From Candidatus Taylorbacteria bacterium RIFCSPLOWO2_01_FULL_48_100 (GTDB lineage Bacteria; Patescibacteriota; Minisyncoccia; Phycocordibacterales; UBA10002), in contig MHSA01000012.1 in assembly GCA_001821135.1 (NCBI GenBank), forward strand, positions 6,341 through 70,340: a DNA stretch of 64,000 nucleotides. The letters run 5' to 3'. Positions 8,320 to 64,000 of this stretch are shown in pieces; the stretch's first letter is position 1, and each line of letters starts with the position of its first letter. The position numbers were made by a program, and so were the translations under genes. The notes beneath the pieces were generated by a model. The model saw only the letters and a program-made list of their open reading frames with translations. It made no database searches and had not been told where the DNA came from.

Positions 8320-8742
8320 ATGGAGAAAGAGACACCAGATGTTGATAGGCGGCAAACATCTAGTGTCTTGGTGTGGTACAATAACACTCATATGCAAAAA
8401 GTGTTTTGGGTAATAATTGGATTTTTGCTTTCCGCAGGGCAAACATACGCACTGCATACTGGCGGTGGTTTGCCGCATCTTGATAACCCGCTTGGACCTA
8501 CTACCAATACATTTGAAGCGCTTGCGGCGAAAATACTTGTGATTGTTTCCGATATAGGCGGCGTGGTGGCGGTATTCTTTATTATTTACGCAGGGTTTTT
8601 GTTTGTAACTGCTGGCGGAAACGAAGATAAGCATAAGAGCGCGAAAAAGGCGATTTTGTATGCAGTCATCGGCACCGCAATCCTCCTCGGTGCGCAAGCA
8701 CTCGCAAAGATTTTAGAGGCAACGATAAACTCGTTGAAATAA
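8320..8742 (+). CDS. VirB2/TrbC-like pilin family small membrane protein (paralog 2)
   Basis: Shared core VTAGGNEDKHKSAKKAILYAVIGTAILLG. Start codon uncertain (8278, 8320 or 8392). Confidence 0.55.
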   Translation: MEKETPDVDRRQTSSVLVWYNNTHMQKVFWVIIGFLLSAGQTYALHTGGGLPHLDNPLGPTTNTFEALAAKILVIVSDIGGVVAVFFIIYAGFLFVTAGGNEDKHKSAKKAILYAVIGTAILLGAQALAKILEATINSLK

Positions 8743-10652: not shown

Positions 10653-10765
10653 ACACCCCTCCGCCTCGCGGACTCGGCACCTCCCCTTAGGTTAAGGGCA
10701 GGATTGGAAAAAGAAAAACCCTCTCGCCCTTTTCATAAGGGGGAGAGGGTAGGGTGAGGGGGTGT
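10653..10765. repeat. GC-rich palindromic MITE-like repeat, copy 1 (modules A then B), with a terminator-like hairpin at 10791-10824
   Basis: Ends acacccctc...gagggggtgt are inverted. Near-identical to the copy at 14632-14744. Confidence 0.7.
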
Positions 10766-10830
10766 TTGAAACAGAAAATAAGAAAAAAATCACCCCCTCA
10801 CTTGTCCGACAAGTGAGGGGGTGTGTGTTT

Positions 10831-11466
10831 TCATTCCATCCGTCCGCTGATTTTCAGCGGAAAGTTGGTGAGCGAGAGGAATCGAAGGACATTCGGCTTC
10901 CCGATGTCGGGGTCGAGTCCCGGGCCGATGATGTGGATGACCCCATCCGCATTCACCGCCAGCACGCCTTCGCGCTTCGTTCCGTCGTCTGCGAACGCAT
11001 CCATCTGCGAACGCCTGCCGTAGAGGTTCAGCGGCTCGCTCCACTGCTCAATCGGCGTGTTGATTGTGCCGATTGGAGCGAGGATGTTGATTTGTTTCTG
11101 GTCGCGAGCAACAGGCGGTCCCGCTTGCGTGGTAATTCCTGCCTGCGCTGGCGCTTGTTGCACCTGCGGCGGCACATAGGTGTAATCGCCTTTCCAGAAC
11201 ATTTTCGGCCCGATGATGAAGATGCAGAGCACGGCGGTGAAGGCAAGAAGTGCAGCGAGTTTCGCAAACGCAATTCCCGTTTCCCACACTTTTTTCCAAT
11301 CGCGTTTTTTTGCGGTTACGGCAGGGGCGGGTGTCGGAGCTCCTCCAGGCACTGGCGTTGTCGGGTTTTTCTTAAACCACCCCGAGATTTTCGTCCAATT
11401 TCCAATCAGAAGAGCGATAATCGCCAACCCAACCGCGCTCCAGATTATGATTGTCAGCCATTTCAT
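10831..11466 (-). CDS. hypothetical membrane protein with Pro-rich linker
   Basis: Good RBS (AGGAAAAATCTTATG). Two TM helices. Terminator hairpin downstream. Overlapping plus-strand ORFs are judged spurious. Confidence 0.5.
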   Translation of the reverse strand: MKWLTIIIWSAVGLAIIALLIGNWTKISGWFKKNPTTPVPGGAPTPAPAVTAKKRDWKKVWETGIAFAKLAALLAFTAVLCIFIIGPKMFWKGDYTYVPPQVQQAPAQAGITTQAGPPVARDQKQINILAPIGTINTPIEQWSEPLNLYGRRSQMDAFADDGTKREGVLAVNADGVIHIIGPGLDPDIGKPNVLRFLSLTNFPLKISGRME

Positions 11467-14631: not shown

Positions 14632-14744
14632 ACACCCCTCCGCCTCGCGGACTCGGCACCTCCCCTTAGGTTAAGGGCAGGATTGGAAAAAGAAAAACCC
14701 TCTCGCCCTTTTCATAAGGGGGAGAGGGCAGGGTGAGGGGGTGT
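14632..14744. repeat. GC-rich palindromic MITE-like repeat, copy 2
   Basis: Differs from copy 1 by a single mismatch. Lies between convergent genes and abuts the polX stop codon. Confidence 0.7.
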
Positions 14745-17078: not shown

Positions 17079-17342
17079 ATGATGTTATTCGTGAAAAAAG
17101 ACATTCACCCGAAGTATTATCCGGAAGCGAAGGTGTCGTGTTCGTGCGGCGCGGTTTTTGCCGTGGGTTCTACCAAGCCGGAATTGCGCGTTGAAATATG
17201 CGGGAACTGCCATCCGTTCTACACAGGCACCGAAAAAATTGTTGACACGGCGGGCCGCGTTGAGCGTTTTAAGTCAAAAATTGCAAAGGCCGCTAGCTTA
17301 CCGCGCGCGGTGAAAAAGGCGGCGAAGAAAAATAAAAAATAA
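17079..17342 (+). CDS. rpmE: 50S ribosomal protein L31
   Basis: KKDIHPKYY...CSCG...[10 protein letters not shown] matches L31. Confidence 0.9.
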
Positions 17343-17350
17343 GACAAAAA

Positions 17351-17445
17351 TCCTCTCGCCCTTTTCCAAAGTGGGAGAGGGTAGGGTGAGGGGGTGTAAG
17401 AAAAAAACACCCCTCCCTTTCCCTCCCCTTAGGTTAAGGGCAGGG
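17351..17445. repeat. GC-rich MITE-like repeat, copy 3 (module order B then A, permuted)
   Basis: cctctcgcccttttccaaagtgggagagggtagggtgagggggtgt, then acacccctccc...ccccttaggttaagggcaggg. Confidence 0.65.
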
Positions 17446-22176: not shown

Positions 22177-23439
22177 ATGTTGGATATAAAATTCATTCGG
22201 GAAAACAAAGAACTCATCGCCGAGGCGGCGCGGAAGAAGCACATCGCGTTCAAGGTGGATGAGCTGATTACCGCAGACGATGAGCGCCGCGCGGTGCTTA
22301 AAATCGTTGAAGACAAACGCGCGGAGCAGAATCGCAAAAGCGAGCAGATTACGCGCGCGCACGACGACAATAAGCGCCAGGCGTTTGTGGAGGAGATGCG
22401 CGCGCTCAAAGTCGGTCTTCAAGAGGAGGAAGAACGGCTGAAAAAGACGACCCAAAAATGGCAGTCGCTAATGCTTCTAGTCCCAAATGTTCCAGATATT
22501 TCGGTGCCGGAAGGGGTTGGCGAGGAAGACAATAAAGAAATGCGGACATGGGGAGAAAAGCCGGAGTTCACATTTGAGCCAAAGAGCCATATTGAACTTA
22601 TGAAGGCGCTTGATATGGCGGATTTTGAACGCGGCGCGGCTGTGTCGGGCTTTCGCGGATATTTCTTGAAGAATGACGGTGCGCTTTTGTCGCTTGCACT
22701 ATGGCGGCTGTGTATGGATTTCTTTACAAAGAAAGATTTTTCGCCAATACTTGCGCCGTCCTTGGTTCGGCGCGAATCACTTCTCGGAACCGGGTATTTG
22801 CCTCAAGGAGAAGACGATTTATACAAAACGCAAGACGGCGACTATCTTGCAGGCACCGCGGAAGTGCCGGTTATGTCGTATTTTGCGGACACAATTTTGA
22901 GTGAGGAAGAATTGCCGAAAAAAATAATTGCGTTCTCTCCGTGTTTTCGGCGTGAGGCGGGGAGCCACGGAAAAGATACAAAAGGGCTGATGCGTGTGCA
23001 TGAGTTTTTCAAGTGCGAGCAAGTGGTGCTTTGCGAAGCGAGCCATCAGGCGTCTGTTGCTTTACACGAAGAGATAAATCGCAACGAGGAGGAATTTATG
23101 GAAACTCTCGGTATTCCCTATCGTACAGTTATCAACTGTGGCGCTGACCTTGGTCTTGGGCAAGTAAAAAAATACGACATTGAATTATGGGTGCCGTCGG
23201 AAAAACGGTATCGGGAAATAAGCTCCGCCTCATACTTCCATGATTTTCAGACACGACGGCTTAATATTCGCTACAAAAACAAAGATGATAAAGCACAATT
23301 TGCCCATTCACTGAATTGCACTGCCGCGCCAACGCCCCGTCTTTTGATTTCCATCCTTGAAAACAACCAGCGCGCGGACGGGAGCATTGCGGTTCCTAAA
23401 GTGCTGGTGCCGTATTTTGGAAAAGAAGAAATAAGATAA
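22177..23439 (+). CDS. serS: serine--tRNA ligase
   Basis: N-terminal coiled coil (MLDIKFIREN) and class II core motifs. Start taken at the internal Met. Confidence 0.9.
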   Translation: MLDIKFIRENKELIAEAARKKHIAFKVDELITADDERRAVLKIVEDKRAEQNRKSEQITRAHDDNKRQAFVEEMRALKVGLQEEEERLKKTTQKWQSLMLLVPNVPDISVPEGVGEEDNKEMRTWGEKPEFTFEPKSHIELMKALDMADFERGAAVSGFRGYFLKNDGALLSLALWRLCMDFFTKKDFSPILAPSLVRRESLLGTGYLPQGEDDLYKTQDGDYLAGTAEVPVMSYFADTILSEEELPKKIIAFSPCFRREAGSHGKDTKGLMRVHEFFKCEQVVLCEASHQASVALHEEINRNEEEFMETLGIPYRTVINCGADLGLGQVKKYDIELWVPSEKRYREISSASYFHDFQTRRLNIRYKNKDDKAQFAHSLNCTAAPTPRLLISILENNQRADGSIAVPKVLVPYFGKEEIR

Positions 23440-23441
23440 CA

Positions 23442-23632
23442 CTCGGAATGCTGCTTTTGCGGAACCGGAAAATTTCCCCTGCGAGGAAATTTTCCTTATC
23501 CGCTCGCCTCGCTCTTCCTCGCAGATTCGGAATCCATGCCCGCTCGGCTCCTCGCCCGCCCGTACCGAAACGGTACATTTCGGGCGGGCCGTTCCGCAAC
23601 CTGTCTGCCGACAGGCAGAAAGCACATTGCTT
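23442..23632. repeat. TIR-bounded structured element, copy 1 (long form with two extra nested hairpins)
   Basis: Shares ~110 nt at near identity with 43881-44015. Outer 20 bp stem ggaatgctgcttttgcggaac/gttccgcaa..agcacattgc. Begins 3 nt after the serS stop. Confidence 0.7.
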
Positions 23633-25336: not shown

Positions 25337-25387
25337 GCCCCTGCAATTTATCATTAAGCCACGATCGTATCTTAATAATAAAACTAA

Positions 25388-25435
25388 TATACACTATCTC
25401 TGACGGTCGTTAGAGATAGTGTATTCAGTCATTTT
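25388..25435. repeat. hairpin family X, copy 1 (acactatctct...agagatagtgt + attttgc)
   Basis: Also present at 44097-44140. A related long-range inverted repeat (gttagagatag) lies at 14155-14290. Confidence 0.5.
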
Positions 25436-25518
25436 GCAAAATGTTTGTATAAGATATTGCAATAAAAAAGTCGCTTCGGTTTCCCAAAGCGACTTGTCTC
25501 GTCGTATGACGAGATGTT

Positions 25519-36777: not shown

Positions 36778-37748
36778 TCGTGCTCAAGCATATCAAATAT
36801 TTGCTTTTTTTGCGATGGGAGAAACCACTGTATTTCTTTATTTCTTTTAAACCAAGTCATTTGCCGTTTGGCGTAGAGGTATATTTCCGTTTGCAACTTC
36901 TCAATCATTTCTACTTTAGTCATATATCCGCGTAAGTAGCGCGATAGATATCGGTACTCAAGTCCGAGCGATTCCATCCGTTTCCACGACAGGCCGCGCT
37001 TATGTAGCCGCCGCGCCTCTTCTATCATTTTATACCTTCTAATTCGCGCGAATAAGCGCATAGAGATTTTCTTTTTTAATTCCGCGGGTGGAAGTGTGAT
37101 GCCGAGCCATACAACATTAAGCGAGCGGACAAAGGCAAGGCGTTCTGAAAAACTGGGGTGGGGGCGTGGCCATTCAATTCTGATTGAATGGGGGGGTCCG
37201 CCTGAGGCGGACAGAACGCTCTTGTCGGCGTCCGCGAGCGCGATTTCGATTGCACGCACAAGACGACGCGGATTGTGTGAATCTATTGTTTCCGCGCGGT
37301 GCTTGTTAAGTGTTTTGAGAAGTGCGAATAATTCCGGCGCGGATTTTTTCTCCAGTTTTTTGCGGAGCGCGGGGTTTGGCGGCACATCGGGAATTTGAAC
37401 GCGCCCGAGCGCGGCGTCTATATAGTGACCCGTGCCGCCGCAGATAATAGGGAGGCGGCCGCGCGCAAAAATCTCTGAGATTTTTGCGCGAGCAAGTTTT
37501 TCATAATCCGCCGCCGTGAATTGTTTTTTCGGATACGCAACATCAAGAAGGTGGTGGGGGACTCTGCGCATTTCTTTTTTGGTAATTTTACCAGTGCCGA
37601 CATTGAGTCCCTTGTACACCTGCCGTGAATCGGCAGAAATTACCTCGCCGCAAAATTTGCGCGCAAGCGTTACCGCGAGCGCGCTTTTTCCACTCGCCGT
37701 CGGTCCGACAACGACAATTATTTTTTTCTTTTTCCGTTCACTGCGCAT
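36768..37748 (-). CDS. miaA: tRNA dimethylallyltransferase
   Basis: P-loop (VVVGPTASGKS) and MiaA core. Confidence 0.85.
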   Translation of the reverse strand: MRSERKKKKIIVVVGPTASGKSALAVTLARKFCGEVISADSRQVYKGLNVGTGKITKKEMRRVPHHLLDVAYPKKQFTAADYEKLARAKISEIFARGRLPIICGGTGHYIDAALGRVQIPDVPPNPALRKKLEKKSAPELFALLKTLNKHRAETIDSHNPRRLVRAIEIALADADKSVLSASGGPPHSIRIEWPRPHPSFSERLAFVRSLNVVWLGITLPPAELKKKISMRLFARIRRYKMIEEARRLHKRGLSWKRMESLGLEYRYLSRYLRGYMTKVEMIEKLQTEIYLYAKRQMTWFKRNKEIQWFLPSQKKQIFDMLEHEGL

Positions 37749-37793
37749 ATACTCTGTTCTCGTCTTGTGCTAATTATCCACATCTTTCTTTAT

Positions 37794-37815
37794 CTTCTAA
37801 TTCGCGCGAATTAGA
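37794..37815. promoter_or_regulatory. perfect 22 bp palindrome ttctaattcgcgcgaattagaa upstream of arsR-like gene
   Basis: Read directly. A second near-perfect copy lies at 38144-38165 and a partial copy at 37030-37050. Candidate operator. Confidence 0.5.
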
Positions 37816-38101: not shown

Positions 38102-38143
38102 CAAGGTGTTCTCACCACTTTCTTTTTTCCGTGTTTTTACTTA

Positions 38144-38165
38144 TTTTCTAATTCGCGCGAATTAG
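38144..38165. promoter_or_regulatory. second copy of the arsR-associated palindrome (ttctaattcgcgcgaattagca)
   Basis: Read directly. Located downstream of arsR and upstream of the minus-strand tRNA-Leu. Confidence 0.4.
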
Positions 38166-39520: not shown

Positions 39521-39901
39521 ATGACTGTATTAGATTTGGCGAAACTACTCTTGGAAAAGCAAGGATGGACACATCAGAGATTATCGAAAGAGTGTGGCAC
39601 TAGCAGACAGAATATACAAAGATTAATTTCTGGAAAGCCGCGCAAAAAGAAAGGATTTTATTTGGGTGTTCTAAGTGCCGCGTTTCGTTATGGGCTTGAA
39701 GCTGAGGCGATACATGTGATTGTTGGTTCCACTAAAGCGTTGCCAAGTATTCTTCGCGCAGTAATTATGTATCCGGATATCACCCAAGAAGAACTCGCGG
39801 AAATTCGCGAAGCGGAGAAAATCACGCACATGTATTCATTGCCGATCGAAGTGATTAGTTCAATTGTTACAGCAAACCGTTTGAAGAAAAATAAAAAATG
39901 A
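39521..39901 (+). CDS. XRE-family HTH DNA-binding protein
   Basis: HTH (QRLSKECGTSRQNIQRLISG). AT-rich. Confidence 0.55.
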   Translation: MTVLDLAKLLLEKQGWTHQRLSKECGTSRQNIQRLISGKPRKKKGFYLGVLSAAFRYGLEAEAIHVIVGSTKALPSILRAVIMYPDITQEELAEIREAEKITHMYSLPIEVISSIVTANRLKKNKK

Positions 39902-40002
39902 TTTTTCAGAAACACACCGACGACCAGCAATGGCCGGCGGTTTTCTTTTATAAAGTTATAAACATGTATAGTTTTGTTCTGTTGCACAAGTAGTGCTATT
40001 CT

Positions 40003-40839
40003 TTGTGCATGGGTAGGATAAGAATAATTTTACAGAAAGATGTTCTAGAAAAGATGTATGTAAAAAAGAACCTAACGCCTGTTGAAATTGGGAGGCGATT
40101 GAAATGCAGTTTTAAGACGGTCCGCAATCGCCTAAAAGAATTCGGCATTCCTTTTAAAAATCCCGCATTAGCTCGAATGCGGTATCAAAAGTTTGATTGT
40201 ACACACGATCCATTTATTCGCTCGTACATGCTTGGATTTCGGCTCGGTGATTTGAATGTATATAAAAGGGGAGAACATTCGGAGACAATAGTCGTGCGTT
40301 GTCACACCACCCACAAAGCTCAAGTGTTGGTCATTCAATCATTATTTAATCCATTTGGCCGCGTTTCGGTAACACCTCGAGAAGAGCATTTTACAGTAAA
40401 TTGTTTTCTTAATCGGAGTTTTGAGTTTCTTCTTCCTAAAAACGAGCGGGTTTGGCAGTGGATAAAAGACGGTGATTCTGTTGCGCAGAGTTTCATTGCG
40501 GGTTATGTTGATGCTGAAGCCAATTTTATTATCAATCAAGGGCGTGCTCGTTTTAAAATTGATTCCTATGACTACGCAATATTAGAGTGGATATGTTCTT
40601 GGCTTTATAAGAAAAGCATTTCTTATAGTTACAGGTGCATTCGCAAGAAAGGACCATCGTGGAGAAATCAACCTCCTTTAAACGGAGATTTATGGCGGTT
40701 GAATATCAACGAAGCAGGTTCACTGGAAAGATTTATAAAAGAGATTTTTCCTTTTTTACGCCATGCGCATCGGATTAGGGATGTAAAAAAATGTATCACC
40801 AATATCAAATTAAGAAGAAAAAATGGCTCAATTAAATAA
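40003..40839 (+). CDS. LAGLIDADG homing endonuclease (double-motif) with N-terminal HTH
   Basis: Two LAGLIDADG-type motifs (SYMLGFRLGDLNV and SFIAGYVDAEANF). AT-rich. Overlaps the lepA start by 17 nt. Confidence 0.65.
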   Translation: MCMGRIRIILQKDVLEKMYVKKNLTPVEIGRRLKCSFKTVRNRLKEFGIPFKNPALARMRYQKFDCTHDPFIRSYMLGFRLGDLNVYKRGEHSETIVVRCHTTHKAQVLVIQSLFNPFGRVSVTPREEHFTVNCFLNRSFEFLLPKNERVWQWIKDGDSVAQSFIAGYVDAEANFIINQGRARFKIDSYDYAILEWICSWLYKKSISYSYRCIRKKGPSWRNQPPLNGDLWRLNINEAGSLERFIKEIFPFLRHAHRIRDVKKCITNIKLRRKNGSIK

Positions 40840-42622
40840 CATCAGAAATTTCTGTATCATAAGTCATGTGGACCACGGAAAGTCCACCTTGGCAGACCGA
40901 CTACTAGAGATTACCGGTACGATTGAGAAGCGCAAGATGCGCGCGCAGGTGCTGGATTCTATGGATCTTGAGCGCGAGCGCGGTATTACGATAAAGATGA
41001 CGCCTGTTCGTATGGCGTATCAGGAATACATTCTGAATCTTATAGACACTCCAGGGCATATTGATTTCTCGTATGAAGTATCGCGCGCTTTGCGCGCGGT
41101 TGAAGGCGCGGTGCTTCTTGTGGATGCAACACAAGGCGTGCAGGCGCAGACCATAACTGTGCTACACGCGGCGCAGGCGGCTGGGCTCACCATTATTCCA
41201 GTCGTGAACAAAATTGATTCGCAACTCGCGCGTGTTCCCGAAACGAAAAAAGAAATCGCGTTATTGCTTGGGTGCGGAGAAGGCGAGATTTTAGAGGTTT
41301 CTGGAAAAACTGGGCAATGGGTACCAGAACTTTTGGAGGAAGTTATCAAACGAGTACCACCCCCTCGCCCCGCCGACTCGGCACTCCCCCTTAAACAAGG
41401 GGGAGATGGATTTAGGGCACTTATTTTTGATTTTAAATATTCAAACCACGCGGGCGTTGTAGTGTACTGCCGAGTTTTTGGCGGCACGATGGCGAAGGGC
41501 GCGCGATTGAAGTTTGCCGCGGCGGGCAGAGAGTTCACCGTAATAGAAGTCGGCACCTTTTCGCCGGAAGAAACGGCTGCGAACGCGCTCTCGGCTGGAG
41601 AAATTGGGTACATTGTAACCGGTGTGAAGGAACCGGGTGTTGCGTCAGTCGGCGATACGGTAGTTGAGGTAAAGGGTTCGCTCTCTGCACTCCCTGGCTA
41701 TGCGCGCCCGAGCCCAGTCGTGTGGGCGAGCTTCTTTCCTGAAAGTGGAGACGAATTTAACGCGCTTCGCCACGCGCTCGGGCGGCTTCGTCTCTCGGAT
41801 TCTGCGTTTACTGCGGAAGAAGAGTCGTCGGGTGCCTTGGGGCGCGGATTCCGATGTGGGTTTCTAGGAATGCTTCATTTGGAAATAATTTCAGAGCGGC
41901 TTCGCCGCGAATTCAAAATAAATCTAGTTGTAACGCATCCATCTATCGCATATGAAGTACTAACGAAGCGCGTTAAGAAAATTACTGCGTACACCATTAT
42001 GCAGTTTCCTGAACACGGAGAGGTTGAGGAAGTTCGCGAACAGTGGGTGGCGGCGGAGCTCATTTCGCCGCCCGAATATCTTGCGCCCGTGATGCTCCTT
42101 CTCGGCAAGCACGAGGCGCGGGTTGGGGAGACCGAAAATATAGGCAACCGCTTCGTGGTGCGTTTTGAGGCACCACTCAGGGAACTTATGCGCGGATTTT
42201 TTGATGAACTAAAAAGCGTGTCGTCGGGTTTTGCATCCTTATCTTACCGCCTTCTCCGTGAGCTTCGGAAAGCAGATGTCGTAAAAATGGAAATCCTTGT
42301 TGCAGATGACCCTATGCCTGCATTTGGACGGGTCGTTTCGCGCCGCGCTGCAAACGACGAGGCGGAAGCCGTTGTGGAAAAACTATCAAAAATCCTCCCT
42401 CGCCAACAGTTTGAACTGAAAATACAGGCGCGCGTTGACGGAAAGATTGTCGCATCGCGGCGGCTCACTGCGCTCCGAAAAGATGTAACGGGTTACTTGT
42501 ACGGCGGAGACCGCACGAGGAAAATGAAGTTGTGGAAACAGCAGAAAGAAGGTAAGAAACGGCTTGCCGAGCGCGGGCGAGTAGAGATACCCGCCGAAGC
42601 GTTCGTGAAGATGCTTCAGTAG
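40823..42622 (+). CDS. lepA: translation elongation factor 4
   Basis: NFCIISHVDHGKSTLADRLL G-domain and the LepA-specific C-terminal domain. Confidence 0.9.
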   Translation: MAQLNNIRNFCIISHVDHGKSTLADRLLEITGTIEKRKMRAQVLDSMDLERERGITIKMTPVRMAYQEYILNLIDTPGHIDFSYEVSRALRAVEGAVLLVDATQGVQAQTITVLHAAQAAGLTIIPVVNKIDSQLARVPETKKEIALLLGCGEGEILEVSGKTGQWVPELLEEVIKRVPPPRPADSALPLKQGGDGFRALIFDFKYSNHAGVVVYCRVFGGTMAKGARLKFAAAGREFTVIEVGTFSPEETAANALSAGEIGYIVTGVKEPGVASVGDTVVEVKGSLSALPGYARPSPVVWASFFPESGDEFNALRHALGRLRLSDSAFTAEEESSGALGRGFRCGFLGMLHLEIISERLRREFKINLVVTHPSIAYEVLTKRVKKITAYTIMQFPEHGEVEEVREQWVAAELISPPEYLAPVMLLLGKHEARVGETENIGNRFVVRFEAPLRELMRGFFDELKSVSSGFASLSYRLLRELRKADVVKMEILVADDPMPAFGRVVSRRAANDEAEAVVEKLSKILPRQQFELKIQARVDGKIVASRRLTALRKDVTGYLYGGDRTRKMKLWKQQKEGKKRLAERGRVEIPAEAFVKMLQ

Positions 42623-43874: not shown

Positions 43875-43880
43875 AAGACG

Positions 43881-44015
43881 CTCGGAATGCTGCTTTTGCA
43901 GAACCGGAAGATTTCCCCTGCGAGGAAATCTTCCTTATCCGCTCGCCTCGCTCTTCCTCGCAGACTCGGAATCCATGCCCGCTCGGCTCCTCGCCGTTCC
44001 GCAAAAGCACATTCC
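43881..44015. repeat. TIR-bounded structured element, copy 2 (short form)
   Basis: Near-identical to 23442-23556 plus the shared 3' arm. Outer stem ggaatgctgcttttgcagaac/gttccgcaaaagcacattcc. Confidence 0.7.
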
Positions 44016-44096
44016 TCACTCTCGTTATTTATTTCAACACTATTCCAATTAAACGCTATAGCAAGTAACTGGAATAGTTTACTCAATTCAACATAC

Positions 44097-44140
44097 ACTA
44101 TCTCTAGCAATCGCCAAAGATAGTGTATCCAATCATTTTG
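44097..44140. repeat. hairpin family X, copy 2
   Basis: tacactatctctagcaatcgccaaagatagtgta + attttgc. Confidence 0.5.
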
Positions 44141-44200
44141 CCTGCCCGCCGACGAGGAGGGCAAAATGTCTGTATATCCCGACATCCTCTTTGGCACCAG

Positions 44201-44270: not shown

Positions 44271-44566
44271 GCCGAGGTAGCTCAGTTGGTAGAGCGTCCG
44301 CCTGAAATCTTCGGGCCTTTCCGCCGCAAGGCGGATAGAAAAGCGGGTGAAATCGGGGAACATCCAATGACAAACAATCGGACAATCCCGAGCCAAGCTC
44401 GCCGAATAGGCGAGAAGGTGTAGAGACTATTCCTTTGGGAAGTACCCTCTTTTTAACAAAAGATGGGGAAGCGCCCGCCCCCTACTCCATCAAAGATGGA
44501 CGGGTGATGATATAGTCCAAATTATGGAAGAGCGGTAGGTCGGCAGTTCGATTCTGCCCCTCGGCA
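44271..44566 (+). tRNA. tRNA-Phe(GAA) interrupted by a group I intron in the anticodon loop
   Basis: 5' exon 44271-44303 (acceptor gccgagg, D-arm tagctcagttggtagagc, anticodon-stem 5' strand tccgc, loop cu|). 3' exon 44527-44566 (gaaga, anticodon-stem 3' strand gcggt, variable loop, T-arm ggcag-ttcgatt-ctgcc, acceptor cctcggc-a). Confidence 0.7.
44304..44526 (+). other. group I intron (~223 nt) within tRNA-Phe
   Basis: Contains group I core-like elements: P-like aaaagcgggtgaaa, Q-like aatcccgagc, R-like tagagactat, S-like gatatagtcc. The last 5' exon base is U, the intron ends in G, and an internal guide GGGC can pair with the exon end GCCU. Confidence 0.6.
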
Positions 44567-44600
44567 TTTGTAAAATTAGGAATTTTTTATAAAAACCACT

Positions 44601-61284: not shown

Positions 61285-61349
61285 ACGCGCCCCTTACGGG
61301 ACAGGCGACTTTAATATAGCAGAAATTATCTGTAATGTATACTACCCTT

Positions 61350-64000
61350 ATGAAGGAAGCGGTGTTTAATGAGTTGTACAAAAATCTGAACGCAGAACAG
61401 CGCGAGGCGGTGGATGCGATTCAGGGTCCTGTGATGGTGATTGCCGGTCCTGGGACGGGGAAGACATCTATACTCACTTTGCGCATCGCAAACATACTGA
61501 AGCGCACCGACACGCCCGCGGACACAATTCTTGCGCTTTCATTTACCGAAGCGGGCGTGTCCGCGATGCGCAAAAAGATATTGGGAATAATCGGGCCGCG
61601 CGCGTACGAAGTGCGGATTCACACCTTTCATAGTTTTGCGAACGACTTGATAAAAAGGTATCCAGAGGCGTTTCCGCGCATTGTCGGCTCTGAGCATATG
61701 GAGGACTTGGAACAAGTGAAGATTGTGGAAGAATTGCTAAACAAGTATGCTTCTGAAAAATTGCGGCCAAAAAACAATCCAACATACTATGTTTTACCCG
61801 TGATTGATGCCATAAGGCAATTAAAACGAGAGGCAGTGTCGCCGAAGGAGTTTGAGAAGTTGTTGAAAAATGTAGAAAAAAATGAAAAGCACACGCGAAG
61901 CAAAGAACTTGCAAAACTCTACCATGCATACGAAAAGGAATTGCGCCGACGGCGTTTGTACGACTTTGAAGATATGATTACAGAGGCGGTGGGTGCGCTC
62001 CAGACGGCACCGGAGTTTAAGCAGGAATTGCAGGAGGAGTATCAATACATTCTCGCCGACGAGCATCAGGATGCGAACCGAAGCCAGAACCGTCTGTTGG
62101 AACTTCTCTGCGATTACGATACTGCTCCTAACTTGTTTATCGTCGGCGACGAGAAGCAGGCGATTTTCCGTTTTCAAGGCGCATCACTGGAAAACTTTTT
62201 GTATTTCAAGCGGCGGTTTCCGAAAGCGCGCATCATCGCGCTTGTGCACAATTATCGCTCCCAACCCACTGTGCTCGTGGCGGCACATTCGCTAATAGGC
62301 AAGTCCGTGGCGGCGGGAAGCATCTTCCACATAGAACTCGCGGCGCGTGCAGGGCACGCGCCGCTCCAAATACAAATTGCCGAAGCAGCAGATGAACGCG
62401 ATGAGCTTGCGTGGCTATCGGGCAAAATTGAGCGGATGATTAAAAAGGGAACTTTACCGGAAGAAATCGCCGTACTTGTGCGCGAGAATAGAGATGCGGA
62501 GAAGGTAGAACGCGCGCTTCGCGCGCGCGGAATACCAGCCGTTCGTCGTGGAGACGCAAATGCACTTGACTCGGTGCGCATAGATGCTTTGCGAAAGTTG
62601 TGCGCGGCAATTCTTGAACCGTCCAACGATGCGCTTCTCGCTCCCGTTTTGTTTTTTGATTTTCTGAAGTTACCCGCGCTCTCGGTTATTGATATGGTGC
62701 GCGATAAAGACAAAGGTTTTCTTATTCGCCGAATGGCGCGGTACGGAAAGGAATGCGAGAAAATGCAGGAAAAAATTTTGGAGTGGAACAAGATTTCGCA
62801 CAACGAACCGCTTGTTGAAGCGGTTGAAAGCATTGCGCGCGAGTCGGGTTTTATTGAACAAATGCTCGCGCGAGAAGACGCGCGTGAAGAGCTTCGCGCA
62901 TATGCGGTATTTCTCGGAAGCGCGGAGCGCCTCGCGGAGCGCGATAAACGCGCGAAGTTGGTCGATTTCACCGCGCGTCTCGCGCGAGCGGAGGCGCACG
63001 GTATCGGTATCGCGGCATCACGCGAAGCGCATAGCGGCGTACAAGTGATGACAGCGCACAAAGCAAAAGGTTTGGAATTTGATGCCGTGTTTATCGTGTT
63101 CGCACAGGAAGGGAAGTGGGGAGGAAGGCGAAGCCGCACGCTGTTCGATTTACCTATATATGCAGATACAAAAGAAAATACAGATGACGGTTCGCACGAC
63201 GAGCGGCGGCTCTTCTATGTTGCGCTTACGCGCGCGCGCAAGGAAGTGTTTGTGAGTTGGCACGCCACAAACGAGGACGGCCGCGCGCTCCTCCCTAGCC
63301 GTTTTATTTTTGAGATGGAGGAAAAGACGAGGGAGCATATACAAATTACATCCCTCCCCCTCGCTCCGCTCGGGTACTCCCCTCAAGGTGAGAATAAAAG
63401 AGATTCCCCTTTGGAAGGGGGTGTCTCCAGTAGGGAGACGGGGGATGTTTTGCAAAACAAGAAATATCTGAACTTTTTATTCCTCAATCAGGGTTTTGCC
63501 GTAACGCATCTCAATAATTTTCTGGAATGTCCTCGCAAATACTTTTTCTTAAACTTGGTGCGCTTGCCGCGCGCACAGTCGGGCGCGGAACTGTACGGTT
63601 CGGCAATACATACCGCGCTCGCGGCGCACTTCAATGCGTACCGTCGCGATGAAGACAAGCCGTTTGCCGACACCTACCGCATTTTTGAGGGCGCACTGCG
63701 GCGCACGCATCTATCGCTTTTGGATTTTAGAGAATATCTGGCGCAGGGGAAAAAAGAGTTGAAGGGTTATCTTTCTTCGCGCGCGTTCCCGCGCGCGTGT
63801 TGGAACGAATATCATATCGCCGGTGTTATGCTGAAAGTTGGAAAAGAAGAATTAGAACTCACGGGCAACTTGGATAAAGTTGGGATGTTATCAAATGGAA
63901 GTGTGTCAGTAATTGACTACAAAACAGGGAAGCCGCGAACGCGGAACGAGATTTTAGGAAAGACAAAAACGAGCGACGGCAACTATTATCGCCAACTCGT
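61350..64000 (+). CDS. UvrD/PcrA-like helicase fused to a C-terminal PD-(D/E)xK (RecB/Cas4-like) nuclease, partial (continues past window end)
   Basis: Hand-translated; not in the ORF track because it is open at the window edge. Helicase motifs: AGPGTGKT, FIVGDEKQAIFRFQGA, VHNYRS, TAHKAKGLEFDAVFIV, LFYVALTRARKEV. Nuclease motifs: LECPRKYFF and SVIDYKTGK. Confidence 0.75.
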   Translation, partial: MKEAVFNELYKNLNAEQREAVDAIQGPVMVIAGPGTGKTSILTLRIANILKRTDTPADTILALSFTEAGVSAMRKKILGIIGPRAYEVRIHTFHSFANDLIKRYPEAFPRIVGSEHMEDLEQVKIVEELLNKYASEKLRPKNNPTYYVLPVIDAIRQLKREAVSPKEFEKLLKNVEKNEKHTRSKELAKLYHAYEKELRRRRLYDFEDMITEAVGALQTAPEFKQELQEEYQYILADEHQDANRSQNRLLELLCDYDTAPNLFIVGDEKQAIFRFQGASLENFLYFKRRFPKARIIALVHNYRSQPTVLVAAHSLIGKSVAAGSIFHIELAARAGHAPLQIQIAEAADERDELAWLSGKIERMIKKGTLPEEIAVLVRENRDAEKVERALRARGIPAVRRGDANALDSVRIDALRKLCAAILEPSNDALLAPVLFFDFLKLPALSVIDMVRDKDKGFLIRRMARYGKECEKMQEKILEWNKISHNEPLVEAVESIARESGFIEQMLAREDAREELRAYAVFLGSAERLAERDKRAKLVDFTARLARAEAHGIGIAASREAHSGVQVMTAHKAKGLEFDAVFIVFAQEGKWGGRRSRTLFDLPIYADTKENTDDGSHDERRLFYVALTRARKEVFVSWHATNEDGRALLPSRFIFEMEEKTREHIQITSLPLAPLGYSPQGENKRDSPLEGGVSSRETGDVLQNKKYLNFLFLNQGFAVTHLNNFLECPRKYFFLNLVRLPRAQSGAELYGSAIHTALAAHFNAYRRDEDKPFADTYRIFEGALRRTHLSLLDFREYLAQGKKELKGYLSSRAFPRACWNEYHIAGVMLKVGKEELELTGNLDKVGMLSNGSVSVIDYKTGKPRTRNEILGKTKTSDGNYYRQL

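Follow-up and report, generated by a model that had tools for sequence, protein, structure and literature searches.

The stretch of DNA analysed here (the window) comprises 64,000 nt of contig MHSA01000012.1 from Candidatus Taylorbacteria bacterium RIFCSPLOWO2_01_FULL_48_100, and it contains a lepA gene in which a short palindromic repeat unit lies in frame with the coding sequence. The product of this gene is 100% identical to the elongation factor 4 (EF4) of Candidatus Taylorbacteria RIFCSPLOWO2_12_FULL_48_11, a genome of the Parcubacteria in the candidate phyla radiation (CPR); all LepA Pfam domains are present, and the protein aligns end to end with the solved EF4 structures 5imq (T. thermophilus) and 3cb4. 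The original prediction, made from the sequence alone, held that a GC-rich segment of lepA resembles an intergenic repeat of the same window and encodes an extra peptide, that a similar stretch links the domains of a UvrD-like helicase-nuclease, and that both had been domesticated as linkers. The features at lepA are as follows:

40823-42622, plus strand: lepA (elongation factor 4), an intact open reading frame (ORF) of 599 aa
41356-41410, plus strand: in-frame palindromic repeat unit in lepA, reading ACCACCCCCTCGCCCCGCCGACTCGGCACTCCCCCTTAAACAAGGGGGAGATGGA
41357-41366, plus strand: head of the lepA unit, CCACCCCCTC, from family alignments
41367-41383, plus strand: long-form middle of the lepA unit, GCCCCGCCGACTCGGCA, matching the core GCCTCGCGGACTCGGCAC at 16/18 positions
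41384-41405, plus strand: perfect 9-bp hairpin of the lepA unit, CTCCCCCTT-AAAC-AAGGGGGAG, from RNA folding

Codons 179-196 of lepA (41357-41410, 54 nt) encode the peptide PPPRPADSALPLKQGGDG. The conserved P-x-P codons of LepA come from the unit head, and relatives have CCnNNNCCn at this position. The hairpin gave an RNA fold of -21.7 kcal/mol (z -2.8), and none of 200 shuffles was as stable. The gene holds a single unit, without terminal inverted repeats of its own.

Units of this kind were compared across the window, 16 loci from three related genomes and 24 metagenome loci. The basic element is a unit of ~50-55 nt in three parts, namely, a head with the consensus (A)CACCCC(C)TC, a variable middle consisting of a few bases or of the long form GCCTCGCGGACTCGGCA, and a hairpin of 9-12 bp, e.g. 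CCTCCCCTTAggtTAAGGGCAGG or CTCTCCCCCTTatgaaAAGGGCGAGAG. Units were found singly, in tandem arrays, or as inverted pairs that form a 113-nt composite resembling a miniature inverted-repeat transposable element (MITE). The stems covary between copies (paired T-A to C-G changes, with 8-12 pairs retained), so the hairpin is a conserved feature of the family. An exact hairpin 23-mer of the family is present in three other genomes, and 92 profile matches were obtained in the 468 kb of the window and related loci. The palindromic unit is dispersed, mostly between genes, in a Parcubacteria clade related to Candidatus Taylorbacteria. The intergenic copies in the window are the following:

10653-10765, plus strand: composite copy 1, a long-form unit A plus an inverted unit B
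14632-14744, plus strand: composite copy 2, 98% identical to copy 1
17341-17444, plus strand: copy 3, rearranged, with unit B followed by a short-form unit A

Copy 1 is closed by ACACCCC...GGGGGTGT and folds at -57.9 kcal/mol (z -4.0). A PolX-like ORF on the minus strand adjoins the right end of copy 2, and copy 3 sits between the L31 gene and prfA. The terminal inverted repeats of the composite copies read ACACCCCTCC...GGGTGAGGGGGTGT. A cmscan search at gathering thresholds assigned no Rfam family to any of the repeats, matching only tRNAs and one group I intron.

The repeat search of the window aligned the lepA segment with 10654-10689 and 14633-14668 at 30/36 ungapped identity. The 18-mer core GCCTCGCGGACTCGGCAC, with up to two mismatches, was confined in the window to lepA and the two intergenic copies, and 100 shuffles yielded no occurrence. 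A blastn-short search of the composite repeat against the window gave lepA a non-significant E of 0.36, so profiles were required. The first nhmmer profile was built from six long-form units fetched via a hairpin 23-mer that is unmatched in lepA; it scored lepA at 21.2 bits (E 1.4e-5), the best match in the window beyond the three known intergenic copies, and the maximum across 300 block-wise dinucleotide shuffles of the window was 8.5 bits. With the second profile (21 copies, lepA excluded), 41356-41410 scored 48.1 bits (E 4.2e-14) at full length (model positions 2-56), a value partly favoured by ascertainment as discussed below; the best of 300 shuffled windows reached 10.0 bits. The lepA segment is a full-length member of the dispersed palindromic family, well above chance. 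The resemblance first noticed from the sequence alone is thereby confirmed, and in the proposed comparison with shuffled controls it exceeds composition.

The closest unit to the lepA segment was not found in the window. An intergenic unit in the metagenome (locus L033, position 4150) is identical to it at 47/52 positions, against 40/52 for the composite copies of the window itself. The nearer relation of the lepA copy is to a subfamily seen in other metagenomes. The L033 unit lies just upstream of an ORF that we take, from reading by eye, to have a GMP synthase-like N-terminus. The exact 22-nt hairpin of lepA, loop included, also occurs at locus L007 of genome CAYIUC01, which had been fetched with a pattern that lepA lacks.

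Several further observations concern the intergenic units. Tandem arrays with an exact 83-nt period, in two to three or more copies, consist of a long-form unit plus a fixed spacer (L041, 5213-5397), and further arrays of this type were seen in L042, L049 and L031. Adjoining composite copy 1, a perfect 15-bp hairpin derived from the unit head, CACCCCCTCACTTGTC-cga-GACAAGTGAGGGGGTG, lies at 10782-10832 with T-runs on either side and was flagged as a bidirectional terminator-like site. Copies abutting an ATG, with a Shine-Dalgarno-like 3' arm, had prompted the idea of a hairpin role close to ribosome-binding sites; this was unsupported, as 12/85 units lie within 25 nt of a long-ORF start against 17% at random, a crude count without enrichment. 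A role as intrinsic terminators was also considered; the terminator scan left units A and B unflagged. In copies 1 and 2 a T-run comes after unit B on the opposite strand, an orientation that misfits some copies.

The lineage distribution of the lepA segment was determined from an alignment of 120 LepA sequences and a codon alignment of the site in the DNA of five close relatives. The ten closest orthologues (P0002-P0011, 73-90% identity) are 6-9 residues shorter between V-P-x-P and F-R-A-L-I-F-D, which bears out the claimed extra length of LepA in the window. This difference also holds for the six nearest relatives of comparable sequence, and the nearest orthologues reach 81-90% identity. The five relatives with DNA carry unrelated A-rich sequence at the unit site, e.g. 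CCGAAAGAAGAAACGCAAAAAACAAACAAG, so that the unit replaced the native linker and was not added to it; ~27-36 nt of A-rich native linker are missing where the 54-nt unit sits. The segment is specific to this species lineage, as had been supposed, but it is no plain insertion. Two relatives, CAYIUC01 and VMFZ01, carry many family units elsewhere in their genomes and none in their lepA; the absence from lepA is therefore not through lack of the repeat, and the supposition that relatives without the segment would be free of repeats fails for at least these two. The segment is carried by 4/4 near-identical proteins of the species cluster, on ~20 contigs whose sources name several independent Rifle metagenome-assembled genomes. 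It is thus fixed and no assembly artefact, and a strain variant without the lepA copy was rejected as a candidate.

The site of the segment is, in the predicted structure, compatible with the fold of LepA. An AlphaFold model (mean predicted local distance difference test score, pLDDT, 75) places residues 178-197 in a coil that follows the last helix of the G domain (167-177) and precedes the strand with which domain II opens (198-207), with pLDDT <50 at residues 189-193. A HMMER alignment to T. thermophilus EF4 (5imq) likewise puts the extra residues directly before domain II. This coil and the shorter orthologues agree with the proposal that the repeat forms additional linker peptide, which here joins the G domain to domain II. 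The same alignment pairs PPPRPADSALPLK with the canonical PPPKGDPEAPLK of 5imq. We consider this pairing coincidental, because the window keeps GFR, the counterpart of PLK in relatives, and the relatives are without the PLK stretch.

The second gene named in the original prediction lies at the end of the window:

61335-64000, plus strand: UvrD-like helicase fused to a PD-(D/E)XK nuclease (Pfam), running off the window end
63348-63448, plus strand: in-frame composite palindromic element in the helicase gene, residues ~672-705, encoding ITSLPLAPLGYSPQGENKRDSPLEGGVSSRETGDV

UvrD_C ends at residue 644 and PDDEXK_1 starts at residue 721 (Pfam). The element spans ~100 nt, with the end repeats ACATCCC...GGGATGT and internal hairpins. 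Among orthologues it was found only in the window and in Gr01-1014_17 (72% identical), where the first 46 nt agree at 45/46 positions. More distant orthologues (~60% identity downward) mostly have a linker of ~20 residues at this site, and the closer relatives P0122 and P0123 (83-85%) carry a different palindromic element in the same place. The repeat nature of the helicase element rests on blastn comparison with the fetched loci. An in-frame copy in the LeuRS of Gr01-1014_17 matched it at E 3e-10 (peptides SSLEGGVSRRETEDV and SPLEGGVSSRETGDV) and a second homologous copy at E 2e-7; its first 31 nt are identical at 30/31 positions (97%) to units of L044, L045 and L030, the last of which lies inside an 844-aa ORF. 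The lepA-type long-form profiles scored the element weakly (8.8 bits, E 0.11, and then 4-5 bits), and in pairwise comparison with a single B-type unit it reached p ~0.01. The helicase segment is a composite element from a related subfamily and is larger than, and different from, the lepA-type unit. What had been said of this linker holds in that it is repeat-derived, in frame and lineage-restricted, and needs correction as to the kind of repeat.

In the helicase gene of P0122 (L023, ~8430-8560), the linker palindrome reads GCAAAACTT...GGAAGTGCCGAGCGGAA...TTCCGCGAGGCACTTCC...AAGTTTTGC. Its 3' end repeat overlaps the conserved VLQ codons, which hints at a local inverted duplication.

Further in-frame units were found outside these two genes of the window, mostly at interdomain linkers. 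About 10 of the 92 profile matches fall well within ORFs that measure 474-1164 aa from stop to stop. A second helicase site, in L023, has HHHPVSRTRHPSLEKEGR (54 nt) in place of the NVEKNEKHTR (30 nt) of its relatives; its flanks are near-identical to those of close relatives, and its reading frame differs from the others. In-frame units were also present in PolA, in a 1164-aa protein and in a Mur ligase, where the unit lies at the M/C domain junction just before Mur_ligase_C. The LepA proteins of P0030 and P0056 carry short-form units at the same junction of the G domain and domain II (G/II junction). Most in-frame units use the frame that gives L(A/E)DSALPL(R/K)KGG. Direct reading of the commonest loop, TTAGGTTAA, shows that the two remaining forward frames are closed by stop codons, so the predominance of the 'DSALPL' frame fits a survival filter.

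Other repeat-like peptides were observed in LepA. At the G/II junction (residue ~193), P0025, P0026, P0080, P0091, P0100, P0102 and P0115 have the peptide 'xADxxTxIxADxNQRxSASxLRxSA', and several repeat families seem to target this junction in Parcubacteria. A second insertion hot spot lies at G-domain residue ~67, where repeat-like peptides of 25-40 residues occur in many Parcubacteria (P0047, P0091, P0093 and ~25 other LepA orthologues). Three LepA proteins (762-814 aa in total) have a whole PD-(D/E)XK domain (PF13366) at residue ~67, flanked by the repeat peptides 'xADxTQNxAE ... SASxxRxSA'.

The family was compared with known systems of small repeats. The reduced genome of Rickettsia carries dispersed palindromic repeats of ~100-150 bp, the Rickettsia palindromic elements (RPEs), many of them in frame in housekeeping genes (PMC10969869, summarising Ogata et al. 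2000); the proteins that carry them remain intact, and the places of insertion look fold-compatible (PMC10969869). The present family is similarly palindromic, dispersed in a reduced genome, and in frame in unrelated housekeeping genes whose products are otherwise intact. A dispersed palindrome, in-frame copies in intact proteins, and sites that appear fold-compatible (the lepA model, the helicase and the Mur ligase) place it in an RPE-like class; the likeness is one of functional class, a relationship in sequence is not expected, and homology to RPEs is not claimed. Unlike RPEs, the unit measures ~55 nt (composites ~100-116 nt), is built of modules (a head, an optional middle and a hairpin), is read in each of the three forward frames in one host or another, replaced the native linker in the two best-resolved cases, and is hosted by a Parcubacteria (CPR) lineage.

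Repetitive extragenic palindromes (REPs) are by definition extragenic. As in the REPs and bacterial interspersed mosaic elements (BIMEs) of Proteobacteria, the present units are short imperfect palindromes, mostly extragenic, arranged in direct and inverted mosaics (unit A plus inverted B; 83-nt arrays). REP superfamilies are described as carrying a GTAG/CGTC tag (PMC3733652). The head CACCCC(C)TC differs from this tag, and no Y1_Tnp match, the signature of REP-associated tyrosine transposases (RAYT), was found among the scanned ORFs of the 64-kb window; in these respects the family differs from the REP/RAYT kind. In-frame fusions are also formed by MITEs, namely, intragenic ERIC, BOX and Anabaena MITEs (PMC10969869). 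The likeness to these lies in the composite copies, with their terminal inverted repeats (also present in the helicase element) and strong secondary structure, and in the occasional intragenic copies that extend ORFs. Unlike MITEs, the family showed no target-site duplication at the lepA and L023 junctions, no parent insertion sequence was identified among the scanned ORFs of the 64-kb window, and lepA holds a single 55-nt unit, not a composite bounded by terminal inverted repeats. No account of in-frame palindromic repeats in CPR/Patescibacteria was found in the literature, of which the coverage was partial, so that this is absence of evidence only.

We consider it very probable that a unit of this family was copied into the lepA linker and is tolerated there as an RPE-like selfish passenger. 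In this species lineage, a copy of the ~55-nt unit would have displaced the short native sequence that linked the G domain to domain II. It would persist because its site is a flexible coil between domains, because its orientation and frame are the only ones open through the element, and because the gene stays in frame, the unit thereby reading through as a Pro/Gly-rich linker. The helicase element may be kept under the same logic. The lepA copy would then be a tolerated passenger and not a selected feature, and the proposed domestication as a peptide linker goes beyond the data, which indicate tolerance and fixation in a low-confidence coil and not an acquired function. Arrival was probably by copying from another unit and not by cut-and-paste transposition. 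More speculatively, template switching guided by microhomology, or illegitimate recombination at microhomologous C-rich or A-rich stretches, would fit better than cut-and-paste.

Several points weigh against this explanation. The junctions of lepA and of the L023 helicase show no target-site duplication, and in both of these well-resolved events the native linker was replaced and not merely interrupted. None of the 57 scanned ORFs of the 64-kb window matched a transposase or RAYT family (Pfam; the scan drew on 58 candidates of at least 110 aa, and two minus-strand ORFs overlapping the helicase gene were left out). Given these junctions, the replaced linker and the lack of a transposase match in the window, classic transposition is unsupported. 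The 21-copy profile includes metagenome copies fetched with a 19-mer that matches lepA, and its score is favoured to that extent; this bias is absent from the first profile and from the L007 hairpin match. Lastly, the lepA stem is paired at 9/9 positions, better than many intergenic copies, and selection may act on the hairpin itself.

This last point leads to an exapted nucleic-acid element, in which the hairpin and the purine-rich GGGGGAG arm would be preserved for some function of the lepA mRNA or DNA, such as pausing of translation where the two domains meet, processing or stability of the message, or the binding of a protein, with the peptide as a by-product. The perfect stem that folds better than 200/200 shuffles, the covariation of stems across the family, the clustering of in-frame copies at domain boundaries, and the fixation of the lepA copy in all sampled genomes of the species are in keeping with such a role. 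However, conservation of the hairpin does not extend across lepA orthologues, an intact stem is expected anyway in a recently copied unit, and tolerance explains the location at domain boundaries equally well; we regard exaptation as improbable. The segment might instead be the ancestral LepA linker, a canonical PPPxxDxxxPLK motif kept here and lost in close relatives, as the HMMER pairing of PPPRPADSALPLK with PPPKGDPEAPLK of 5imq would suggest. This is very improbable, because 10/10 closest orthologues lack the segment, its DNA shares 90% identity with intergenic units of unrelated loci, and the relatives keep (G/K/N)F(R/C)ALIFD, the true counterpart of PLKALIFD, whereas the window has both PLK and GFR.

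Chance resemblance, in which Pro (CCN) and Gly (GGN) codons of a variable linker mimic a C-rich and G-rich repeat, could draw on the blastn-short E of 0.36, on the PPP codons that add to the head match, and on the presence of PPPKGDPEAPLK at the same place in T. thermophilus EF4. It is hardly credible beside profile E values of 1.4e-5 and 4e-14 with no shuffle >10 bits, the 16/18 match of the non-Pro/Gly middle GCCCCGCCGACTCGGCA, and the exact 22-mer hairpin, loop included, in a relative; moreover, CPR coding sequence of similar composition did not routinely exceed 20 bits in the 468 kb of loci. A chimeric join induced by the repeat during assembly or binning has almost no chance of having made the segment: repeats are well known as places where metagenome-assembled genomes are misassembled, but the frame reads on unbroken, the flanks on either side are collinear with those of orthologues, and four cluster members share the identical segment across ~20 contigs that were assembled independently.

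Beyond the tolerated copying preferred here, a wider proposition is doubtful. Parcubacteria might carry an undescribed class of tiny modular palindromes that are copied, not transposed, into proline-codon-rich interdomain linkers of essential proteins and repeatedly overwrite the same junctions, with hairpins that may have been exapted where domains meet, e.g. as translational pause sites. The proposition draws on the LepA G/II junction having been struck in at least two independent events, and on the different elements that sister lineages have in the helicase-nuclease linker. If the proposition is true, linker replacement would represent a new way of remodelling proteins in streamlined genomes, beyond passive RPE-like tolerance.

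Other features of the window were recorded. Between parB and lepA, 39521-40839 encodes a 126-aa HTH_3 protein and a 278-aa protein without a Pfam match, the ORF of which overlaps the lepA start; in the relatives L002-L005, lepA follows parB directly or after tiny ORFs, and the region looks like an inserted cassette. A group I intron (Rfam Intron_gpI, 44294-44532, 58.6 bits) appears to interrupt a tRNA gene at 44271-44570, with the 5' half just upstream of the intron and the 3' half (T-arm and acceptor) at ~44538-44567; the gene was uncalled by ARAGORN. A dispersed repeat of 118 nt occurs at 23439-23556 and 43878-43995 (96% identical) and contains TCCTCGCAGACTCGGAA, which weakly resembles the long-form middle (6.4 bits). 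The palindrome TTCTAATTCGCGCGAATTAGAA is found three times upstream of parB (37016-37056, 37774-37814 and 38125-38165), and these could be partition or origin-related sites. The palindromes ATACACTATCTCT...AGAGATAGTGTAT, at several intergenic sites (25386-25437, 44090-44141 and 14144-14169/14259-14284), are a separate small repeat family.

The repeat segments have consequences for comparative work on these bacteria. They inflate or distort alignments of marker proteins, account for many length differences among Parcubacteria LepA orthologues, and risk being misannotated as lineage-specific protein motifs, and they also mark protein sites that are naturally tolerant of insertion. Replacement-type junctions without target-site duplications raise a testable question on how such elements spread. 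An ultra-small, streamlined CPR genome, that of a groundwater bacterium from a group other than Rickettsia, carries a proliferating palindrome that rewrote the linkers of essential housekeeping proteins (EF4/LepA and a UvrD-like helicase here; LeuRS, PolA and a Mur ligase in relatives), thereby providing an independent parallel to the RPE phenomenon of Rickettsia.

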